Shown one piece after another: positions 5,504-58,844 of a stretch of 64,000 nucleotides of DNA; the stretch's first letter is position 1; the number at the start of each line of letters is the position of its first letter. The notes under the pieces were generated by a model. The model ran no database searches and was not told where the DNA came from. It saw only the letters and a list, made by a program, of their open reading frames with translations. The stretch spans positions 27,714,001 to 27,778,000 of the forward strand of contig CM119371.1 of the NCBI GenBank assembly GCA_051294905.1, read 5' to 3'. Both the position numbers and the translations under genes were made by a program. This stretch comes from Botryllus schlosseri. Taxonomy: Eukaryota.

Positions 5504-6819
5504 CAGAGGTGGTCAAAGTAGTCAAGAAAGCTACTCAAGTAGAAGTAGAAGTAGCGAAGAAAAAATCTACTCAAGTACGAGTAGAAAAACTTCTTCCATA
5601 AGTAACCTAAAACTACTCGAAGTAGAAGTAGAATTTACTGACTTTAAAAGTACTCAAGTAAGTAAGTAGTTGTGAAAACGATCCTAATTCGTTCACATGG
5701 TTTGTAAAAAGGTGCAAATTGAGCTATGCGAAAGGTGACGAGCTTGTGTCCTATTGATACATACCAGCAGGTATCCAATTTTCTATAGCATAAGCATTCG
5801 TTCACAACATAGGATGAAAATGATAGTATTATTATGGAAATGCGATACTTATCCTCTGTTTTCTAGAACAGCACGTTTTAGAAAATATCATGGTATGGCG
5901 ACATCCCCCATATTATAAGGTCCGTAGTTTAGTCGAAGAGCAATGCGGAGAAGTTGTATAGGATACGGTGTAAGCACTTTGCGCAATTAGTAAACGTTAA
6001 TAAAAATATGGGGGACCGTAAAAATGCCATATTGTGTAGCTTTATTTCCGGAAGTTTAAGGCATCACTACACTTACTTTTATACTTCAACATGTATTTTA
6101 TCCAGACAAAAGAACTGATATTAATTATAACTCAAAGTATATGATACTGGGAATTGAAAATAAAACATAAATACTACTTCTAACAGCAGAACATGTATTT
6201 CATGCCTTCAGTCCAGAAAATTTCAAAGGCGGTATGCTAAAACAGCACCAAAACTAACAAAAAAGTCAGATTCCACTTTTCTAGGATAGGACGTGCCATG
6301 GACAATGGACATGCTAGATTACGATATGACAAGTAAATGATAGATTGCCAAACAGATGAGCCATATATACTGTGATGAATTATTTCATATGGGCGAAGGG
6401 CGAAAATGTGGTGTGAACGTAGTGATATCTAGTTCTAGATATCCCTGTGTGAACGGAATCACGCCAACCCGCTACCTGAATTATATCCATCGATACTTTC
6501 GTAAAATCATACTGGTAACTATGTATCTACTGCGCGCGAAGCGCGACAAAAATTCTAAACTTAACTCAACTTTTATGAAAATTAAATGTTGATGCGACGT
6601 GAAAACAGCCCCGAAATTCCTCAGGCAATCTTCCTGATTGGAAGATTGAGCTACTTCTACTTGACAAACTGAAAATAGCGAAAAGTAAGTAAATAGATCA
6701 CAAAATATCACGAAGTAGAAGAAACGGAAATCAGATCTACTTGAGTAAGTACCAGAAGTAGAGGAAAACTACTTGAGTACTTCGAAAAAGTAGAAGTACT
6801 TCGTTACTGACCACCTCTG
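5504..6819. mobile_element. Non-autonomous hAT element, 1316 bp
   Basis: Perfect 12-bp TIR CAGAGGTGGTCA / TGACCACCTCTG; perfect 8-bp TSD TGAATAGG (5496-5503, 6820-6827); subterminal AGTAGA/CTACTCAAGT repeat arrays at both ends; no transposase ORF. Confidence 0.92.
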
Positions 6820-38468: not shown

Positions 38469-38598
38469 GTAAGACATCAAATAATATGAGCTCTGTACAT
38501 GCAAATGACAAACATGCACCTGAATAACAACGTAGACCATTTCGACCAAGTCTGGTTGTCCATGCTCACGCGTATAACCTTCCCTTTTCCTATTACAG

Positions 38599-38783
38599 GC
38601 AGAATCGCAAGCTGTGGATGCGACATCAGAAGAGGTGTGGGCGGTCCCGGTTGGGAATGGGGCGGGTGCAGTGATAATTTCAAGTTCGCGCGACAATTCG
38701 CGAAAAAATTCGTCAACGCGGGAGAGGTGGGAACGGATCTCAAATACCGAATGAATCTGCACAACAACGAAGTCGGAAGACGG
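38599..38783 (+). CDS. wnt1: Wnt1 coding exon 4
   Basis: cctattacAG|[29 protein letters not shown]...[11 protein letters not shown]|GTAAAT; phase 1 to phase 0. Confidence 0.95.
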
Positions 38784-39359
38784 GTAAATGCATTTTCATA
38801 CTGTCGCCGTGAAAAGGATGCAGTGGAGATCGAGATATTGTTTAATATTTGATGTGAGATTTACGTCGCTCTGTCTCCCCGAAAAGCTACATCTCATATC
38901 CAGAGGTTTGCAAAGTTCACAGCGTTGGTAGTTTGGTACACAGGAAGATGTAATAACTAACGTGGTACATTTCTACGCAATTACAAGTAGTAGAAAGGAC
39001 TTCCAAGACCTGTCAAAACTACTTCAAATGGATGTATGAACATTACGTAACTAACATTACCAAGTCTCATAACCATCATTTGTGCGATTAGTATGAAAAA
39101 ATTATTGGAATCTACCACAAGTGGTCGAGTAATCACCGCTGCTTCTCGAGTAGAAGTAGAAATATTGCCACAATTTTATATTCGATTACAATAGACTTGT
39201 CAAGTTCCAGGACAAGTGCAACGCTACAACCACATTCGACCTGGAAATTGATATCATCATCATAATCAGGGTTCTGTTGATATTTTCAAAAATCCCCGAC
39301 ATCATCTCTCAATCCCCGACGAAATATAGCAATACGGCATCGAGTCTATGCCTCAAGTA

Positions 39360-50569: not shown

Positions 50570-50900
50570 CTAAATGTGTGGACATCTCTTACAAATCTAT
50601 ACAAAACCTCGATCTATTGTAGCTTAAAGATGTTTATCAACGAAACAGGATATTTATAATAAATACCCTCGATATTCGATATAAGCAAATAGGGGTCATA
50701 GTAGTCAGCATTGGTTCTTGAATAGACGTAAAAGTAGCGTTTATATTTCATCTCCATCATAAACAAAACCAGCCATTACCAAACATGACGAAAGTACTTC
50801 GAGATGAAGCATAAAATGAAGATGTGCAAAGTGCTCAAGCAAGGTTATCAGAAAGTAAATTTGATTGAGGCGTCACGTAAGTAGTTATATAGATCGGTCT

Positions 50901-51126
50901 GGGGGTGGCAGGGGCTCTTATGGCGGGGTGGTGAGCGGCTGGAAAACCGGGGGTGGTGAGCGGCTCCTTATACCTTATGGCGGGGTGGTGAGCGGCTATT
51001 GCGTCTTATGGCGGGGGTGGTGAGCGGCTCTTATTTCTTATGGCGGGGGTCGTGAGCGGCTGGAAAACCGGGGGTGGTGAGCGGCTTTTATGTCTTATGG
51101 CGGGGTGGCAAGCGGCTATTGTGTCT
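50901..51126 (+). repeat. Polinton subterminal G-rich array, 8 units of GGGGTGGTGAGCGGCT
   Basis: Units at about 50901, 50925, 50950, 50982, 51014, 51046, 51071 and 51102, with spacers alternating TCTTATGGC and GGAAAACC; higher-order ~120-bp duplication. Confidence 0.9.
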
Positions 51127-51793
51127 TGTGGTCGCACCTTTTCAGTATAGGGATAGCTCGCACGCGGCTTCGTTGTTGGCATGTCGTACTTCGTGTTGAA
51201 TATGTATCAAGTAAATAGTCATGTGATTGGTCCTTAGGTAATGTGTATATTCCAAATTACGGCGAGTACGACAATGATATATCGTTATTCTTATGGATGC
51301 GGCGATGATTCGTACTTTCAGGCATCTCTCGCGTGGTGTTGAATATGTACGAGTCACCAACAATAACCGCGCGGACGGAAACGTGGCTTGTTGCGAGGAT
51401 TAAGCAGTGCGACCTATATTTCGAATGACCTGCGCGCTGAATTGTTTCCGTACAGTTGTGTGCTACTATCGATTATTACACTAGAACGATCAGTGTGAAA
51501 TAGTTTGATCGTAAATTATGATATATGATGTCGTAGTTTAGTCGTATCAAATGACCGATCGTGTTCTCTTTCCTCGCTATTGATTGCTACCCGAATAATA
51601 CTTTCGGTTTATTCACACCGCTGTTTCGCGCCTACAGAATAGTCTGCTGTTCACAGTCACAACTTCATCGCGATAGCACAATTTTCACACCTCGATCAGT
51701 AGAACAACACCGCACTAACCCAGTTGTCGAATCACATAGGTCATACATTTTACGCGAAATGAAATATTGTATTGTGGTATACAAATATGCAAA

Positions 51794-52921: not shown

Positions 52922-53299
52922 AACGAGTATATGTAACTATCACCTGAAAAAGTAAACCATGAGAATGACACCACAATGTGTTAAAATGGTGAAATACACC
53001 GCTCAGATTTCAAAAAAAAAAACAGATGTTGGCGGGTGCGTTTGACATGTGTGACACAATAAAATCACCCGTTTCGCTAAACAGGAAATTCACTAAAGCG
53101 CAGTGTGCTGTGTGATTTTGAAAAAACAGATGTCCGCGGCCGCGTTTCGATCTGTGTGACACACTAAATACGTCCGGTTCTGAAATTCGGAAACACGGTC
53201 GGTTCTGGGGATTACGCAGTGTGCGTGCGGCCTATATTTCGAATGACCTGTGCGCTGAATTATTTCCCACCCAGCCGCGTGCTACTATCGAATTAAATC

Positions 53300-53307
53300 T
53301 ATAAATA
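53300..53307 (+). promoter_or_regulatory. TATA box of ORF 53389
   Basis: TATAAATA ~85 nt upstream of the ATG; the same octamer occurs at 59452, 61227 and (minus) 52445. Confidence 0.6.
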
Positions 53308-53388: not shown

Positions 53389-54276
53389 ATGGCCGAGGCT
53401 CAGATAGATAATCTTGACAAATTTGGTTATGAACCAAATGCATTCGAATCGCAATTTGAAGAGAATGCGGATATCTTTGACGCGATTAATCCTGGTGAGC
53501 TGATGATGTCTGATTTAAGAGTTGAATCCGCAGAACGCGACCTTACGGCAACGATCGAAATGCGACCAAACCATGCAGATATAGCGCGCCAGGCGTGGCT
53601 GAAGTCGGGTCAACTAGCTAGAGAAAGCGCGATTAATGACCTCGCGAACTTGTTGACGACGCCGTGTGTACCGATCGATGAGGCGAACGTTAGCACCGAA
53701 TTACCGAGTACTGAGAAGCCGTCGACTTCTGGGGTGACGCTACCACGCTCCGCGGGGTTGCTATCGGTAACTGATACTCCTAAATCTGTATCAACCGACA
53801 AGCCGACTCGAAAAAGAGCCATAGCGACAACGGCGGGGGTAGGCATACCACCAGCTAAACAGCTTCATAATGGGAAATCGAAAAATTCGAGTCGTACTGA
53901 ACCCAGACAGAAGGCTAGCAAGAAACCTGCGAAATCGAAAACCGTGAGTGTCGATGATTTTCGCGACGACGTGAAGGGAAAGAAGAAGCAAGAAGAAAAA
54001 CTATGTCAATACACAGTTGACAAGATGGTTACCCACCTCCAGACTATTGACGTTGTTAAGCCGCATTTAGGTTCAATACTATGTTATGTTGACTCGTTGA
54101 CGGAGAAAAAAAATTTGACTATCACAAAGCTCATGACTGACATCAAACGATTGCTTACTGTCAAGGGTCAGCGTCGGAGTCTTGATGAGATTCAGCCTGA
54201 ATTAAATACCGCAACCGATGAGTACTTGCATCGACTTCTAGAAATTAGAACAAAATTGAAGTATAATTTGTGCTGA
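53389..54276 (+). CDS. Polinton hypothetical protein, 295 aa (acidic N-terminus, S/T/K-rich linker, helical C-terminus)
   Basis: Long ATG ORF after a TATA box; AATAAA at 54348-53; internal GTGAGT donor at 53944 suggests isoforms. Confidence 0.8.
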   Translation: MAEAQIDNLDKFGYEPNAFESQFEENADIFDAINPGELMMSDLRVESAERDLTATIEMRPNHADIARQAWLKSGQLARESAINDLANLLTTPCVPIDEANVSTELPSTEKPSTSGVTLPRSAGLLSVTDTPKSVSTDKPTRKRAIATTAGVGIPPAKQLHNGKSKNSSRTEPRQKASKKPAKSKTVSVDDFRDDVKGKKKQEEKLCQYTVDKMVTHLQTIDVVKPHLGSILCYVDSLTEKKNLTITKLMTDIKRLLTVKGQRRSLDEIQPELNTATDEYLHRLLEIRTKLKYNLC

Positions 54277-54389
54277 ATGATTTTCGTTGTTGTGAGTGTC
54301 TATTCTCAATTTCTGTTTTCCGTTTCAGATTTTACATTAGAGCCGTAAATAAACAATAGCTTCTAAAAGCGCAACCACTAACGGCGCTG

Positions 54390-54866
54390 GCACTCTTGTA
54401 ATCTCGAATCAGCGGTTCACAGTCTTTCTCTCTGGGTGTCGAGCAGCGAACAGCGTGGCTGACTGTCTGGGTATATTCAACTGCGGATTGTCGGATAAGG
54501 AGTTAATTAGTAAGTTATTCGGTACGATTACTTTGATTTATGAATATAATTTGTTATTTATTTATCCGCCAGACAAAACAAGCGTGGGATTAAAGAATTG
54601 AAACGGTGAGTTATTATTGTTCAGAACTAGTGAACATGATGTAATGATTTTGTTGTTTACAGACAGTGCAAACTCAAGTTGAATACACGAGTCTACTGGT
54701 AAGTTATCTGCTGCATCACTACGTTAGCGAACATAGTTTGATGTGTTACTTGTTTTATTAAGCATAAAGAGTCAAGGAAGACACCAGCAAAGAAACTAGA
54801 TTGTAAGTAAGACTAGTTTAATGTTCCTCAAGTGCTGAATTTGACTGTGTGTTATCGCTTCTACAG
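54390..54866 (+). other. Predicted spliced 5' leader of pPolB: exons ..-54509, 54573-54605, 54663-54698, 54763-54802; introns of 63, 57, 64 and 64 nt
   Basis: Donors GTAAGT (54510), GTGAGT (54606), GTAAGT (54699), GTAAGT (54803), each followed ~60 nt later by a T-rich tract and AG; the last AG abuts the pPolB ATG. Confidence 0.7.
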
Positions 54867-57800
54867 ATGAGTCGACGACGGAGAAATCACGAGGACGAGA
54901 ATGAGCCACCAGAGATTGACAACCAACACCAACAAATTACATCTCAGAACTGGCAAGTGGTGAAATCGTATGTAGTGAACAGTAGCCGTGTGTATAATAT
55001 TCGAGTCATCGATCGTAAGCGATCGGATGTTTTCCAAGATACCCAATCGATCTGTCTGATCAACCCGCAGTTATATGAATACCCTACCGATGGCATGTTG
55101 ATTGGTTGTGCTGGTATTAAACTACCGACATGGCTTACAAAATCAAAATGCGTCATGACAATGTTGCGTCGAAAAAACGGTACGAGACACAATGACAATC
55201 TGTGTGCTTTTCGCTGTATTGGTCACTCACTAGGAAAAGATACCAAAGATTTGGCTCAACAGTTCACTTCGGTGTATGGTGTAAATGTAGAATCCGGTGT
55301 AACTCTTGACATGTTGAATGATATCGAGGTCTTGTTTAATGTGGCCATATTTGTATACACCAAGACTGATGGTAAAGCTGTCGCGCTCCGTCGTAGTACG
55401 TTTGAAGGGAAACCTGTGTATTTACATTTAGAACATGCACACTTCTGTCTCATTACTGATATGAGGCGATATATAGAGACCTATAAATGTGATGTTTGCC
55501 AACGATTATTTGATGAACAATATGATTTGACCAGACACAAATGTGTAACGGGTCCCGTTGAAGTGTTCCCGGGTGGCGTGTATACACCTCCTCTGAACAT
55601 CTTTGAAAAACTTGATCTAGAAGGGGTGTTTGTTCCTCATCAGCTTCGTTATTTCAAATACCGTATCGCGTTCAGTATAGAGAGTGTGTATGATACCTCA
55701 AAAACTTTGCGAGAGTGCCAGAACATTCCCATCTCTGTTAGCATATCGTCTAATGTGGAAGGTTACTTGGAGTCGCGTGTAATTGTCTCGAGCGGTGATA
55801 CAAACGATTTATGCGCCCAAATGATTGACCATTTTCACGATATTCAAAGTGAATCATTCAGACTGTCACTCACAGAATATCGACCCTACCTGGACATGCT
55901 CAAATCGAAAATTACCGAAATGAAAGTGCTCGATCCTTCAAAACACCCAATACCCCTTGAACGTTTACAAGTGGAGTTTATGAGTTATTTGCGTCAAATC
56001 CCTGTTTTGTCGTTCAATTGTGATCGATATGACTTGAACTGGTTCAAAGCGTACTTGTTTGGTTTTCTCGTTGACGACAATCTTAGTGTACTGAAACGCG
56101 GTAACAAATTTCTCTCAATGACGACCAACAGACTTCAATTCTTGGATATTGTGAATTACTTGACACCCGGGTTCTCGTATGATTCGTATTTGGAGGTCGT
56201 CAAATGTAGCGCCGCTAAGGGTCATTTTCCGTACCAGTTTCTGACTAGTTTGGAAAAGTTAGATTATCCGAGTCTACCAAGCCACGACGAGTTTTACAAC
56301 CCGCTAAAAGGTTGTAATATATCCACAGCTGAATATGAAAACTGTTTGAAGGTTTGGAACGACAACAAAATGACCTCTCTGCGTGATTATCTCAAATGGT
56401 GCAACGCGAACGATACTCACTACTTCATAGAGGTTTTAGAAAAACAATTCCAATCATTCAAAAGTCAATTCAATGTTGATATATTCAAGGATGCGGTCTC
56501 CCTACCCGGGGTTGTATCGAGGCATCTTTTCAATAGCATTCCGCGTGATTTCACCTTGTTCAATGATAAACACCAAGATCTGTTTTCGCTATTCGGGGAT
56601 AATTTAGTGGGTGGACCATCGATCATTTTCCATCGACACCCAAAACCAGGTGTAACTCGGATCAAAGAACATGTCTATAAGGAAAATGCACAGATTGCAC
56701 AACATATAACAAGTTTGACCAGCGACTCGCTCTATCTGTATGCTTTAAGTCGACCAAGTCCAACTGGATTTGCGATACGTTGGCAACCAATCGACGCCGA
56801 GTGTACTAAATTCAAACCTGTCAAGACCGCGCCGAAATGCTCAGAGACTGTAACCCAGTGGATGAATTGGTATTCCCATATTCATAAGGTGCATGTTCAC
56901 CACGCTTTTAACGGACCTGAAATTCATGTGGGTGTGCGCAATTATCGACCTGATGGGTTTTATCGTAATTCGGCCGGACAAGGGATAATCTTATCGTTCC
57001 TTAGATGTGATTTTCACGCCCACGATTGCAGATTCGGATGTGATGACCCAGTACGTCGAGAGCGAGCTAAACGCATTCATGATTATTACGAAAGTCTAAA
57101 TTATCGAGTTGTATGTAAATGGGAATGTGAGTGGAATATCGAGAAGAAGAGAAATCCTGATATTGTGCGATATCTCGATGGTATTCAACCACAACTGACC
57201 CGTGCCAAGTCTGTCACCCCACAGAAATTGATGGAGATGGTGATGAATGGTACTTTCTTTGGTTGTTTGCTGGTTGATATTTGTACTCGACCACATTCGA
57301 AAAAGCGATTCGCTGAACTCCGCCCGATATTCAAAAATACTACAGTGTCTCGCGATACCGTGAAAAGTGACATGAATCAGCTTGCTGTAGATCGGAAATC
57401 ACCCAGTAAACCCACTGACATGTTGGTTGCGTCGTACTGCGGTAAGAAAATCTTACTAACCTCCGACTTGATCAAATGGTATGTAGATCACGGATTGGTG
57501 GTATCAAAAATTCATGAGGCTGTCGAGTTCGCCAAAAAGACATGTTTTGACAACTTTGCGAAAAATGTCTCAGACTGTCGACGTGCTGGGGATCGCGATC
57601 CTAACATGGCGATTATTGGGCTAACGCAAAAACTCGCTGCGAATTCTTGTTATGATCGTGAGTTAATGAATCCGCGTAAACTCGAACAAACCACGTTCTG
57701 TGATAAAAGTGAATTGAACGCAAATGTGGAGGATCGTTTCTTCGTCAAGTGTGGAGAAATAAACACAGATCTATTTGAAATAACGAAGCACCCTCAAAAG

Positions 57801-58214
57801 ATCGAGCAAGATAACTGCATTCAAGTATCGTTCTGGTTGTATAATAATGTCAAATTACGGATGTTGTCGTTTTTTTATGACTGTTTATGCAAATATTTTC
57901 GCACCGATTGCTTCATGCTACTTTCGGTGGATATCAATTCGTTTTTCATCGCACATTCAGCCCCACTCGATGACATTCTCATCTCCGAGAAAAGGAACGA
58001 ATTTTACTGTGATTACGAGAATTGGTTTCCACGTTATTTTTGCGATGAGCATCGAAACGAATTCTTGACTGACCCGTCTTCTTTTGACCGCTCGAGACAG
58101 TGTTGCAAAGAGACGTATGCTCATTATCTTCATCAACCTGGTTTGATAAAAGTGAGATACGACGCCGATGCATCTTTCCACGGTCGCAATCGCTTTCACA
58201 GTGACCCAAGATAA
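54867..58214 (+). CDS. polB: Protein-primed family B DNA polymerase homologue (1115 aa) with substituted catalytic motifs
   Basis: DNLCAFRC, C2H2-like CDVC..H, FNCDRYD, KGHFPY, VGGPSIIFHR, Vsr-like insert (PDGF..KWECEW), KLAANSCYD, VDINS, PGLIK. Stop is followed directly by AATAAA (58215-20). Confidence 0.92.
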   Translation: MSRRRRNHEDENEPPEIDNQHQQITSQNWQVVKSYVVNSSRVYNIRVIDRKRSDVFQDTQSICLINPQLYEYPTDGMLIGCAGIKLPTWLTKSKCVMTMLRRKNGTRHNDNLCAFRCIGHSLGKDTKDLAQQFTSVYGVNVESGVTLDMLNDIEVLFNVAIFVYTKTDGKAVALRRSTFEGKPVYLHLEHAHFCLITDMRRYIETYKCDVCQRLFDEQYDLTRHKCVTGPVEVFPGGVYTPPLNIFEKLDLEGVFVPHQLRYFKYRIAFSIESVYDTSKTLRECQNIPISVSISSNVEGYLESRVIVSSGDTNDLCAQMIDHFHDIQSESFRLSLTEYRPYLDMLKSKITEMKVLDPSKHPIPLERLQVEFMSYLRQIPVLSFNCDRYDLNWFKAYLFGFLVDDNLSVLKRGNKFLSMTTNRLQFLDIVNYLTPGFSYDSYLEVVKCSAAKGHFPYQFLTSLEKLDYPSLPSHDEFYNPLKGCNISTAEYENCLKVWNDNKMTSLRDYLKWCNANDTHYFIEVLEKQFQSFKSQFNVDIFKDAVSLPGVVSRHLFNSIPRDFTLFNDKHQDLFSLFGDNLVGGPSIIFHRHPKPGVTRIKEHVYKENAQIAQHITSLTSDSLYLYALSRPSPTGFAIRWQPIDAECTKFKPVKTAPKCSETVTQWMNWYSHIHKVHVHHAFNGPEIHVGVRNYRPDGFYRNSAGQGIILSFLRCDFHAHDCRFGCDDPVRRERAKRIHDYYESLNYRVVCKWECEWNIEKKRNPDIVRYLDGIQPQLTRAKSVTPQKLMEMVMNGTFFGCLLVDICTRPHSKKRFAELRPIFKNTTVSRDTVKSDMNQLAVDRKSPSKPTDMLVASYCGKKILLTSDLIKWYVDHGLVVSKIHEAVEFAKKTCFDNFAKNVSDCRRAGDRDPNMAIIGLTQKLAANSCYDRELMNPRKLEQTTFCDKSELNANVEDRFFVKCGEINTDLFEITKHPQKIEQDNCIQVSFWLYNNVKLRMLSFFYDCLCKYFRTDCFMLLSVDINSFFIAHSAPLDDILISEKRNEFYCDYENWFPRYFCDEHRNEFLTDPSSFDRSRQCCKETYAHYLHQPGLIKVRYDADASFHGRNRFHSDPR

Positions 58215-58494
58215 AATAAATCACGGCGTTGAATGTTATTGTGGTGTACTTGTATATATTTTGTGTGACTTTAATTTATTTGTATATACTGTATGTTTGA
58301 TGTGATTTATTTGTATTGTGTGTTCATGTATCATTTGTTTTCCAGATTGATAACACTATTACCTATCTAAAGTCTGTCATGTCGTTAGATTTTAATGGTT
58401 TACATGTAGAGATGATTACATTCGAGCGGGAAGTACCACAGTTCATGATTCTTGGTTCTACCAAACAACTCCCAACGTCGATGATACCCGATGG

Positions 58495-58802
58495 ATGAAA
58501 AGCAGATCACCAAAACTTGTGCTCAATGGTGAGGTCTATAGTTTGGTAAAGTAACACTATATTTTAAAGCGCTATGAACGTATTACGAATCCTCTTATGT
58601 GATTTATTATTTTACAGATTGGGATCAGCTGCTTGACGACTTGAATAAAGCATTCGTAACACTACAACTTCCGCTGACGAAATTACGAGGGACAGATGAA
58701 GATTTCATAACCCGGGGAAAATTGCTAAATCGAACTTTACTGGGATTGTATATTCCGCTAGAACATGACGACTACAACAGTGGATATTCCCAACCTTGTT
58801 GA
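58495..58802 (+). CDS. Putative two-exon small Polinton gene (58495-58528 + 58618-58802, ~72 aa)
   Basis: ATG AAA AGC...AAT G|GTGAGG and ttattttacAG|AT TGG join in phase 1 to give MKSRSPKLVLNDWDQLLDDLNKAFVTLQ...SQPC*. No homology recognised. Confidence 0.4.
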
Positions 58803-58844
58803 TATATAAACACATACACTTTATCGAGTTTCAATAAACAACAA

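Follow-up and report, generated by a model that had tools for sequence, protein, structure and literature searches.

The pPolB-derived gene of a Polinton/Maverick element in the genome of Botryllus schlosseri is preceded by a genuine multi-exon, non-coding leader, in which four introns are packed into 357 nt and the last of them ends directly on the start codon. The element lies in the window, a 64,000-nt stretch of contig CM119371.1 (assembly GCA_051294905.1, positions 27,714,001 to 27,778,000), and the coordinates given below are window positions on the forward strand (+) unless a sister copy is named. In the interpretation that we favour, and which we rate at slightly better than even, the four introns, in the 5′ leader of the pPolB mRNA, are of an ordinary host type, and a spliced leader (SL) of the host, trans-spliced at an acceptor ending at position 54328, likely caps this mRNA, which would be excised from an operon-like transcript of ORF1, pPolB and two further genes, X and Y. 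The literature listings searched contained no work that dealt with splicing of a pPolB leader, the use of SLs by Polintons or a polymerase-dead Polinton lineage.

The element is about 15.4 kb long, starting at position 50880 and ending in L031. It is flanked by a 6-bp target-site duplication (left copy at 50874..50879, without strand; identical copy past the right end at L031:2287-2292), and its left terminal inverted repeat (50880..51663) gives a 789-bp match to the right repeat in L031 at 99.4% identity, which points to a young insertion. Pfam searches of the window element identified an integrase (rve, E 2.9e-16, plus chromo) and ATPase families, and DNA_pol_B_2 scored above cut-off in the sister copy L043. 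Terminal inverted repeats with a 6-bp duplication, integrase, pPolB and packaging ATPase are thus all present, as in a Polinton/Maverick. The customary places of the capsid and maturation protease are occupied by open ORFs with zero Pfam matches, which by gene order and motifs may be capsid and protease genes. ORF1 (53389..54276, 295 aa), with which the predicted early unit opens, likewise matched no Pfam family above cut-off. The sister copies used for comparison come from the same genome: of 117 candidates, 40 had their leader scored, each at 84% identity or higher, and 30 were retrieved. One host exon found its best match in an ascidian Wnt, that of Styela clava (73%).

The leader opens with exon 1 (54329..54509), which is 181 nt long if entered at the acceptor ending at 54328, here called A0, and contains no ATG. 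It is followed by intron 1 (54510..54572, 63 nt), exon 2 (54573..54605, 33 nt; mostly 33 or 39 nt in other copies), intron 2 (54606..54662, 57 nt), exon 3 (54663..54698, 36 nt; 32-43 nt in other copies), intron 3 (54699..54762, 64 nt), exon 4 (54763..54802, 40 nt; 30-40 nt in other copies) and intron 4 (54803..54866, 64 nt), the AG of which adjoins the pPolB ATG at 54867. Introns 1 to 3 each run from GT to AG; the four donors, at 54510, 54606, 54699 and 54803, read GTAAGT or GTGAGT, and the acceptors end at 54572, 54662, 54762 and 54866. After splicing the start codon has an A at -3. These coordinates bear out a reading made earlier from the sequence alone, which had described four donors, introns of 57-64 nt, exons of 33, 36 and 40 nt, an AG directly before the ATG and the A at -3. 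That reading began the leader at 54390, which is arbitrary; the conserved acceptor at 54328 suggests that exon 1 is 54329-54509.

Conservation among the copies argues strongly for these splice sites. Across 28 distinct copies the leader GT was kept in 111/112 cells and the AG in 112/112, or 223/224 together, whereas GT and AG dinucleotides elsewhere in this region were kept in 875/1064 (82%) and 818/980 (83%) of cells, respectively; the sequence-only reading had proposed a comparison of splice dinucleotides with intron bodies. Variable cells in the 28 copies numbered 8/672 at donor positions +1 to +6, 459/5936 in the intron cores and 284/3052 in exons 2-4. The whole window has 187 GTRAG sites, counting both strands, and a run of three introns like these occurs at the leader only. 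Parsing of 67 loci yielded 66 cassettes in 60 loci, with introns of 57-68 nt except for a single misparse of 55 nt; the seven unparsed loci comprise five of a diverged subfamily, one deletion and one failed parse. In this diverged subfamily ORF1 is 34% identical and the leader DNA can barely be aligned, and the leader consists of three introns of 63-74 nt ending on AG|ATG. Conservation extends to the architecture; the complete clearance of ATGs is not universal.

Removal of the introns was observed in contigs presumed to be RNA. None of the runs was recorded as RNA, so that the X-run contigs are RNA by guess, and the splice evidence comes from sister copies. The window was mapped with X1, X3, X18 (13 reads) and X22 (40 reads), and L043 with four runs. 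X3 contigs placed on the window lack introns 2 and 3, and one X3 joint, 54802>54909, uses the exact donor of intron 4, the letters between its two ends being unknown. On L043, introns 1 and 3 are removed in X5 and introns 2 and 3 in X3, so that the removal of intron 3 is seen in two studies. One contig of X3 is unspliced all the way from ORF1 past A0 and through intron 1, which it retains, and the X1 contigs and the raw reads of X18 and X22 gave zero splice joints on the window. A genomic copy lacking intron 3 was not found: 6 chance matches were obtained against 32 in the control, none of them element-like. The junctions that the sequence-only reading had predicted are thus seen exactly for introns 1-3 and at the donor of intron 4, all in presumed-RNA contigs of sister copies, but the exact joint to the intron-4 acceptor is not among the joints listed for L043. 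Three other apparent introns were discarded. The L043 joint 370>1678 equals a genomic ORF1-TP fusion present in L058, L060-62 and L075; the L043 joint 179>1373 equals a genomic deletion of L059; and a 37-nt GT..AG stretch at 54292-54328 is shorter than all introns confirmed here.

The way in which the leader begins bears on how the whole early region would be expressed. A TATA box at 53300..53307, kept in 29/30 copies, is the predicted start of an early unit that opens with ORF1. Downstream of ORF1, a pyrimidine tract leads into A0 (54310..54328), 52 nt past the ORF1 stop; its AG is kept in 30/30 copies, and we regard it as the predicted entry to exon 1 and a candidate SL site. In the diverged subfamily a matching acceptor lies 62 nt past the ORF1 stop, with 3-4 ATGs in the spacer and none in exon 1. 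Donors upstream of A0 are less constant: none is kept in all 30 copies, candidates occur in 19-25/30, and the moderately good donors of the ORF1 region, 53918 and 54292, are found in 22/30 and 25/30 copies.

Copies with intact polymerase motifs carry the two further genes X and Y, each starting on AG|ATG 94-97 nt beyond the stop of the gene before; the spacers contain no AATAAA. The stop-to-acceptor spacers measure 63, 97 and 94 nt in L043, and 52 nt in the window; these genes, all on one strand, follow each other within 100 nt, as in an operon. In the window the gene-X acceptor (58331..58345) is followed by ATT where intact-motif copies have ATG, leaving a fused X/Y remnant, and the gene-Y part contains a short intron (58529..58617), the 80-nt L043 counterpart of which is spliced out in contigs of X5 and X7. 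An AATAAA at 58833..58838, ahead of the ATPase gene, is predicted to serve the early unit as its only poly(A) signal; X5 coverage ends near the matching place, and X7 coverage nearly so (one study).

In Ciona, close same-strand genes are resolved by trans-splicing at unpaired acceptors, as described in the accessible parts of three reports (PMC1488885, PMC2760879, PMC7986045). The early region resembles the SL operons outlined there in having genes of one strand separated by less than 100 nt and an acceptor right after the upstream gene; unlike them, it is a candidate operon carried by a virus-like element, with an acceptor that leads into four more cis introns. A sibling element in this genome shows this layout as well. 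Taken together, the conserved A0, the layout of X and Y, the single AATAAA and the Ciona precedent point to an operon-like early unit that uses a host SL. The loose contig and read ends listed showed no SL at A0 or at the acceptors of X and Y, and a Ciona-type SL-gene pattern was not enriched in the host genome (26 matches against 149 in the control). Under our preferred interpretation, transcription would run from the ORF1 TATA box to the one poly(A) signal upstream of the ATPase gene, and entry at the acceptor 54328 would free the pPolB message of ORF1 and the ATGs within it. Introns 1-4 would then be removed in cis, as observed for introns 1-3 and the intron-4 donor in sister-copy contigs; ribosomes would scan the 290-nt ATG-free leader to the start codon placed on the last AG, and incomplete splicing may damp, though not block, translation through short upstream ORFs (uORFs).

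A promoter within the leader itself would offer another beginning. A TATA-like word in exon 1 (54344-54350) could start transcription at about 54375 and yield a monocistronic pPolB mRNA with a four-intron 5′ UTR, A0 being used for ORF1 isoforms only. The word is kept in 28/30 copies at a fitting distance, a subfamily lacking ORF1 has a canonical TATA 141-145 nt upstream of intron 1, and X4 contigs, as a weak indication, span the leader and leave out most of ORF1. The same word, however, is altered in the window copy and in L002; the diverged subfamily keeps the acceptor, and no TATA-like word was found there; and the ORF1-less arrangement looks like an ORF1 promoter brought near by a deletion. 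We judge a separate weak promoter unlikely, if still worth serious attention.

The leader has also been likened to that of adenoviruses, and here the resemblance holds in part. The adenovirus tripartite leader is spliced onto the bodies of numerous late mRNAs and enhances their translation independently of the cap, according to those parts of the literature that were accessible (PMC5429599, PMC7851563). Like it, the Polinton leader consists of several short non-coding exons free of AUG, in a genome related to that virus, with 290 nt here compared with 188-203 nt in the adenovirus sources; unlike it, the Polinton leader is tied to a polymerase gene, has introns of 57-64 nt and a GC content of 43%, compared with the 51-63% given there for adenovirus. 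The service to late genes is missing, as the Polinton leader adjoins pPolB, no acceptor adjoins the starts of the genes from ATPase to capsid, and no joint to those genes was seen in L043. An adenovirus-style variant would have exons 1-4 spliced in cis to pPolB, X or Y at their respective AG|ATG acceptors, the choice of acceptor setting the protein made. Such sharing would suit three AG|ATG genes with one predicted poly(A) signal in common, and one X3 contig leaves exon 4 for 58 letters that are absent from L043. A single cis joint into the X acceptor does exist (1741>5575 on L043, in one X7 contig), but it departs from a donor inside pPolB (54968..54973, GT in 30/30 copies), and behind the pPolB ATG gene X is out of frame (phase 2 in 29/30 copies). 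No joint from exon 4 to X or Y is among those listed from the four runs on L043, in which leader coverage is thin, and a shared leader would leave unexplained how it escapes ORF1. We consider this variant improbable. Since neither sharing between genes nor service to late genes was seen, the leader is not classed as adenovirus-type; of the likeness first drawn from the sequence, the multi-exon and AUG-free character stands, and the joining of one leader to several gene bodies has no such joint listed in its favour.

The earlier observation that each intron contains an ATG (54540; 54636/54639/54644; 54741; 54821) and that exons and junctions contain none is correct, but its two halves carry different weight. 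By shuffling, an ATG-free spliced leader of 290 nt has a probability of 0.011, whereas an ATG in every intron is near chance, at 0.35. Among the copies, sites one step from ATG became ATG in some copy at 0/92 positions in exons versus 11/71 in introns, and ACG sites did so at 0/11 versus 5/6; exon CG sites are nonetheless variable (12/27). The P values for this avoidance, 7e-5 and 1e-3, are optimistic because the copies are related and were chosen by their likeness to the window. Leaders of the window's type, entered at A0, lack ATG in 37/38 cases; elsewhere leader ATGs occur in 7/8 ORF1-less cassettes, 5/6 with X-entry and 8/14 unclassified ones, and in 4/6 copies of the diverged subfamily the leader contains a 12-codon uORF. 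The comparison among copies supports selection against leader ATGs within the window's subfamily.

Whether the intron ATGs have a purpose of their own is a separate matter. The sequence-only reading had proposed that splicing gates translation, and in its strict form the intron ATGs would be kept to block pPolB unless all four introns are removed, for instance in the germ line only. In each intron one aligned ATG is almost constant (27-28/28 copies), all four introns have an ATG in 60/66 cassettes, and partly spliced contigs exist. Set against this, the all-intron pattern is at chance level; retention of any one intron creates uORFs of only 1-17 codons in weak contexts, ending 28-94 nt before the start and never overlapping it; some of the ATGs seem to fall on branch-point-like words; and subfamilies with ATGs in their spliced exons persist. 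A dedicated on/off switch is very doubtful, and the broader proposal of a splicing gate is weakly supported. For cellular mRNAs, the accessible part of one study (PMC5961209) describes leader introns as common and associates more leader junctions and uORFs with lower translation, which suggests that the Polinton leader, too, may damp translation. A likeness to such leaders would fit a polymerase made at low dose; four minimal introns in a dense, mostly intron-free viral-type genome set this leader apart from them.

A coding role of exons 3-4, as an extension of ORF 53389 reached by way of a donor at 53944, is scarcely tenable: although the phase-0 frame is open in the window and 15/28 copies, the GT at 53944 is present in 7/30 copies, the frame is closed in 13/28, among them copies in which ORF1 and pPolB are both complete, and no such RNA joint is among those listed. 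The summed lengths of exons 2-4 moreover spread over all three frames (14/29/23 of 66 cassettes), and an in-frame TAG stands two codons upstream of the start in the window (54797-54799) and in 54/66 cassettes.

The gene downstream of the leader (54867..58214, 1115 aa) is derived from pPolB, as had been supposed, but the window copy has lost the catalytic residues. Under the motif names used in the accessible parts of two preprints (10.1101/2023.08.22.554363, 10.1101/2024.03.18.585575), its Exo I, Pol A and Pol C motifs lack their catalytic aspartates, and its Exo III and Pol B motifs are altered; the C-terminus is shortened by about 74 aa, and an in-frame gap of about 80 aa lies near the N-terminus, in the TP/vOTU region. 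An active pPolB carries the Exo I, Pol A and Pol C aspartates and a C-terminal KxY, a set that the window copy does not have. The Exo I and Pol A aspartates are present in L043 and in 34/34 outside homologues aligned (34 of the 120 listed); Pol C and KxY are present in L043, these columns being covered by only 3 of the 34. In its anatomy and its conserved vOTU Cys and His, the predicted product resembles the Polinton/Maverick pPolBs with a TP-vOTU-Exo-Palm layout (10.1101/2024.03.18.585575, 10.1101/2023.08.22.554363, PMC8502044). It differs from those Polinton descriptions, which in their accessible parts report conserved polymerase motifs or an inactivated vOTU, in belonging to a multi-copy lineage that is open and yet polymerase-dead. 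For Tlr1/PLVs, a fusion of a helicase with an inactivated polymerase has been reported (PMC5499653), which is a different architecture. No match of pPolB to a solved structure was found.

The window copy is one of many. Its dead-type motif-A stretch was matched at 92% or more in 38/40 scored hits, which represent at least 38 loci, alongside at least 40 loci of the intact type. An ORF of at least 998 aa is kept in 14/24 typed dead copies, where a rough estimate for no selection would be about 12 stops per lineage. Values of dN/dS were 0.17-0.22 in 6 dead pairs versus 0.05-0.12 in 12 of 45 intact pairs, and pN/pS among dead copies was 0.38 for shared variants confined to the dead type and 0.61 for singletons. 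Dead and intact copies are 76-91% identical along the exo-pol part, with one frameshifted window of L066 lower. Mere exchange with intact copies as the source of the low dN/dS in dead copies is at odds with these pN/pS values and with this range of identity. Judged from these substitution patterns, selection on the dead-type pPolB is relaxed yet present. The product of the window copy is predicted to be a polymerase-dead TP-vOTU-pPolB, and an element making it would depend on copies with intact motifs. We infer a helper-dependent lineage whose pseudo-polymerase may have a non-catalytic role, most likely the supply of TP and vOTU. More tentatively, and with rather less than even confidence, the two halves of this work can be joined: the Polinton would use the operon machinery of its host, a host SL opening the polymerase message and four introns tuning its dose, while a parallel, selected lineage of dozens of copies would make a dead TP-vOTU-pPolB from behind the same leader and be a defective-interfering or cis-priming passenger of the elements with intact motifs.

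The structure of Polinton transcripts is almost undescribed. The dead lineage poses the question of which non-catalytic job keeps a pseudo-polymerase of 1100 aa open. If the proposed expression of pPolB is correct, annotation by ORFs alone misses the gene models of Polintons, and the leader would show a route by which virus-like elements express their replicase in the host. Splicing and trans-splicing would then be a host-controlled step, which could confine these elements to certain tissues.

The pPolB gene of the window (54867-58214, + strand) belongs to a dead-type lineage, predicted from the sequence to be inactive as a polymerase, whose other members include sister loci of the Polinton in the same genome (L035, L036, L038, L045, L049 and L057-L076). 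The motif-A stretch of the window copy is matched at 92% identity or more in 38 of the 40 scored hits, and in 14 of the 24 typed dead-type copies the ORF still spans 998 aa or more. The dN/dS ratio is 0.17-0.22 across six pairs of dead-type copies, whereas it is 0.05-0.12 in pairs with intact motifs (12 of 45 pairs listed).

Located 3′ of pPolB are X and Y, small genes of similar appearance (5575-6123 and 6218-6668 of L043, a copy with intact pPolB motifs). In both, an acceptor AG is followed directly by the start codon, and gene Y contains an intron that is spliced. A Pfam search returned no match for gene X. In dead-type copies a fused X/Y remnant is found, located at 58346-58805 in the window.

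Further features lie around ORF1. The spacer at its stop (54274-54328) holds a single ATG in 29 of 30 copies, which in the window copy immediately follows the stop; within this spacer, 25 of 30 copies retain a 37-nt GT..AG stretch (54292-54328). A segment of the terminal repeat (51376-51472) is found again just 5′ of the ORF1 TATA box (53223-53291). On the - strand, a strong acceptor at 52944 is positioned 22 nt upstream of the ATG of a leftward ORF (52921) and, judged by sequence, is a further candidate trans-splice site. Elsewhere in the window, a host Wnt-family exon is present at 38598-38789 (top match Styela clava Wnt-1-like, 73%).

One contig from X3, a sequencing run guessed to be RNA, continues beyond the end of leader exon 4 (L043:1572) for 58 letters that match nowhere on L043. 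A diverged subfamily has a three-intron leader (L080, L084, L089 and L091; also L092 and L103), and in four of these six copies an ATG opens the last leader exon; the resulting uORF has 12 codons, and its stop codon overlaps the start of pPolB. In five copies (L058, L060, L061, L062 and L075), ORF1 codons 1-73 are joined in frame, at the genomic level, to the pPolB N-terminal region, with a product of 226-235 aa; this fusion lies 5′ of a leader entered through an acceptor resembling that of gene X, and its joint is also present in an X3 contig. The four-intron cassette itself is duplicated in tandem in L021, L024-L026, L063 and L093. In L021, L024, L063 and L093 the first cassette leads into a 162-aa ORF comprising the pPolB N-terminus only, an arrangement that recalls a split terminal protein.
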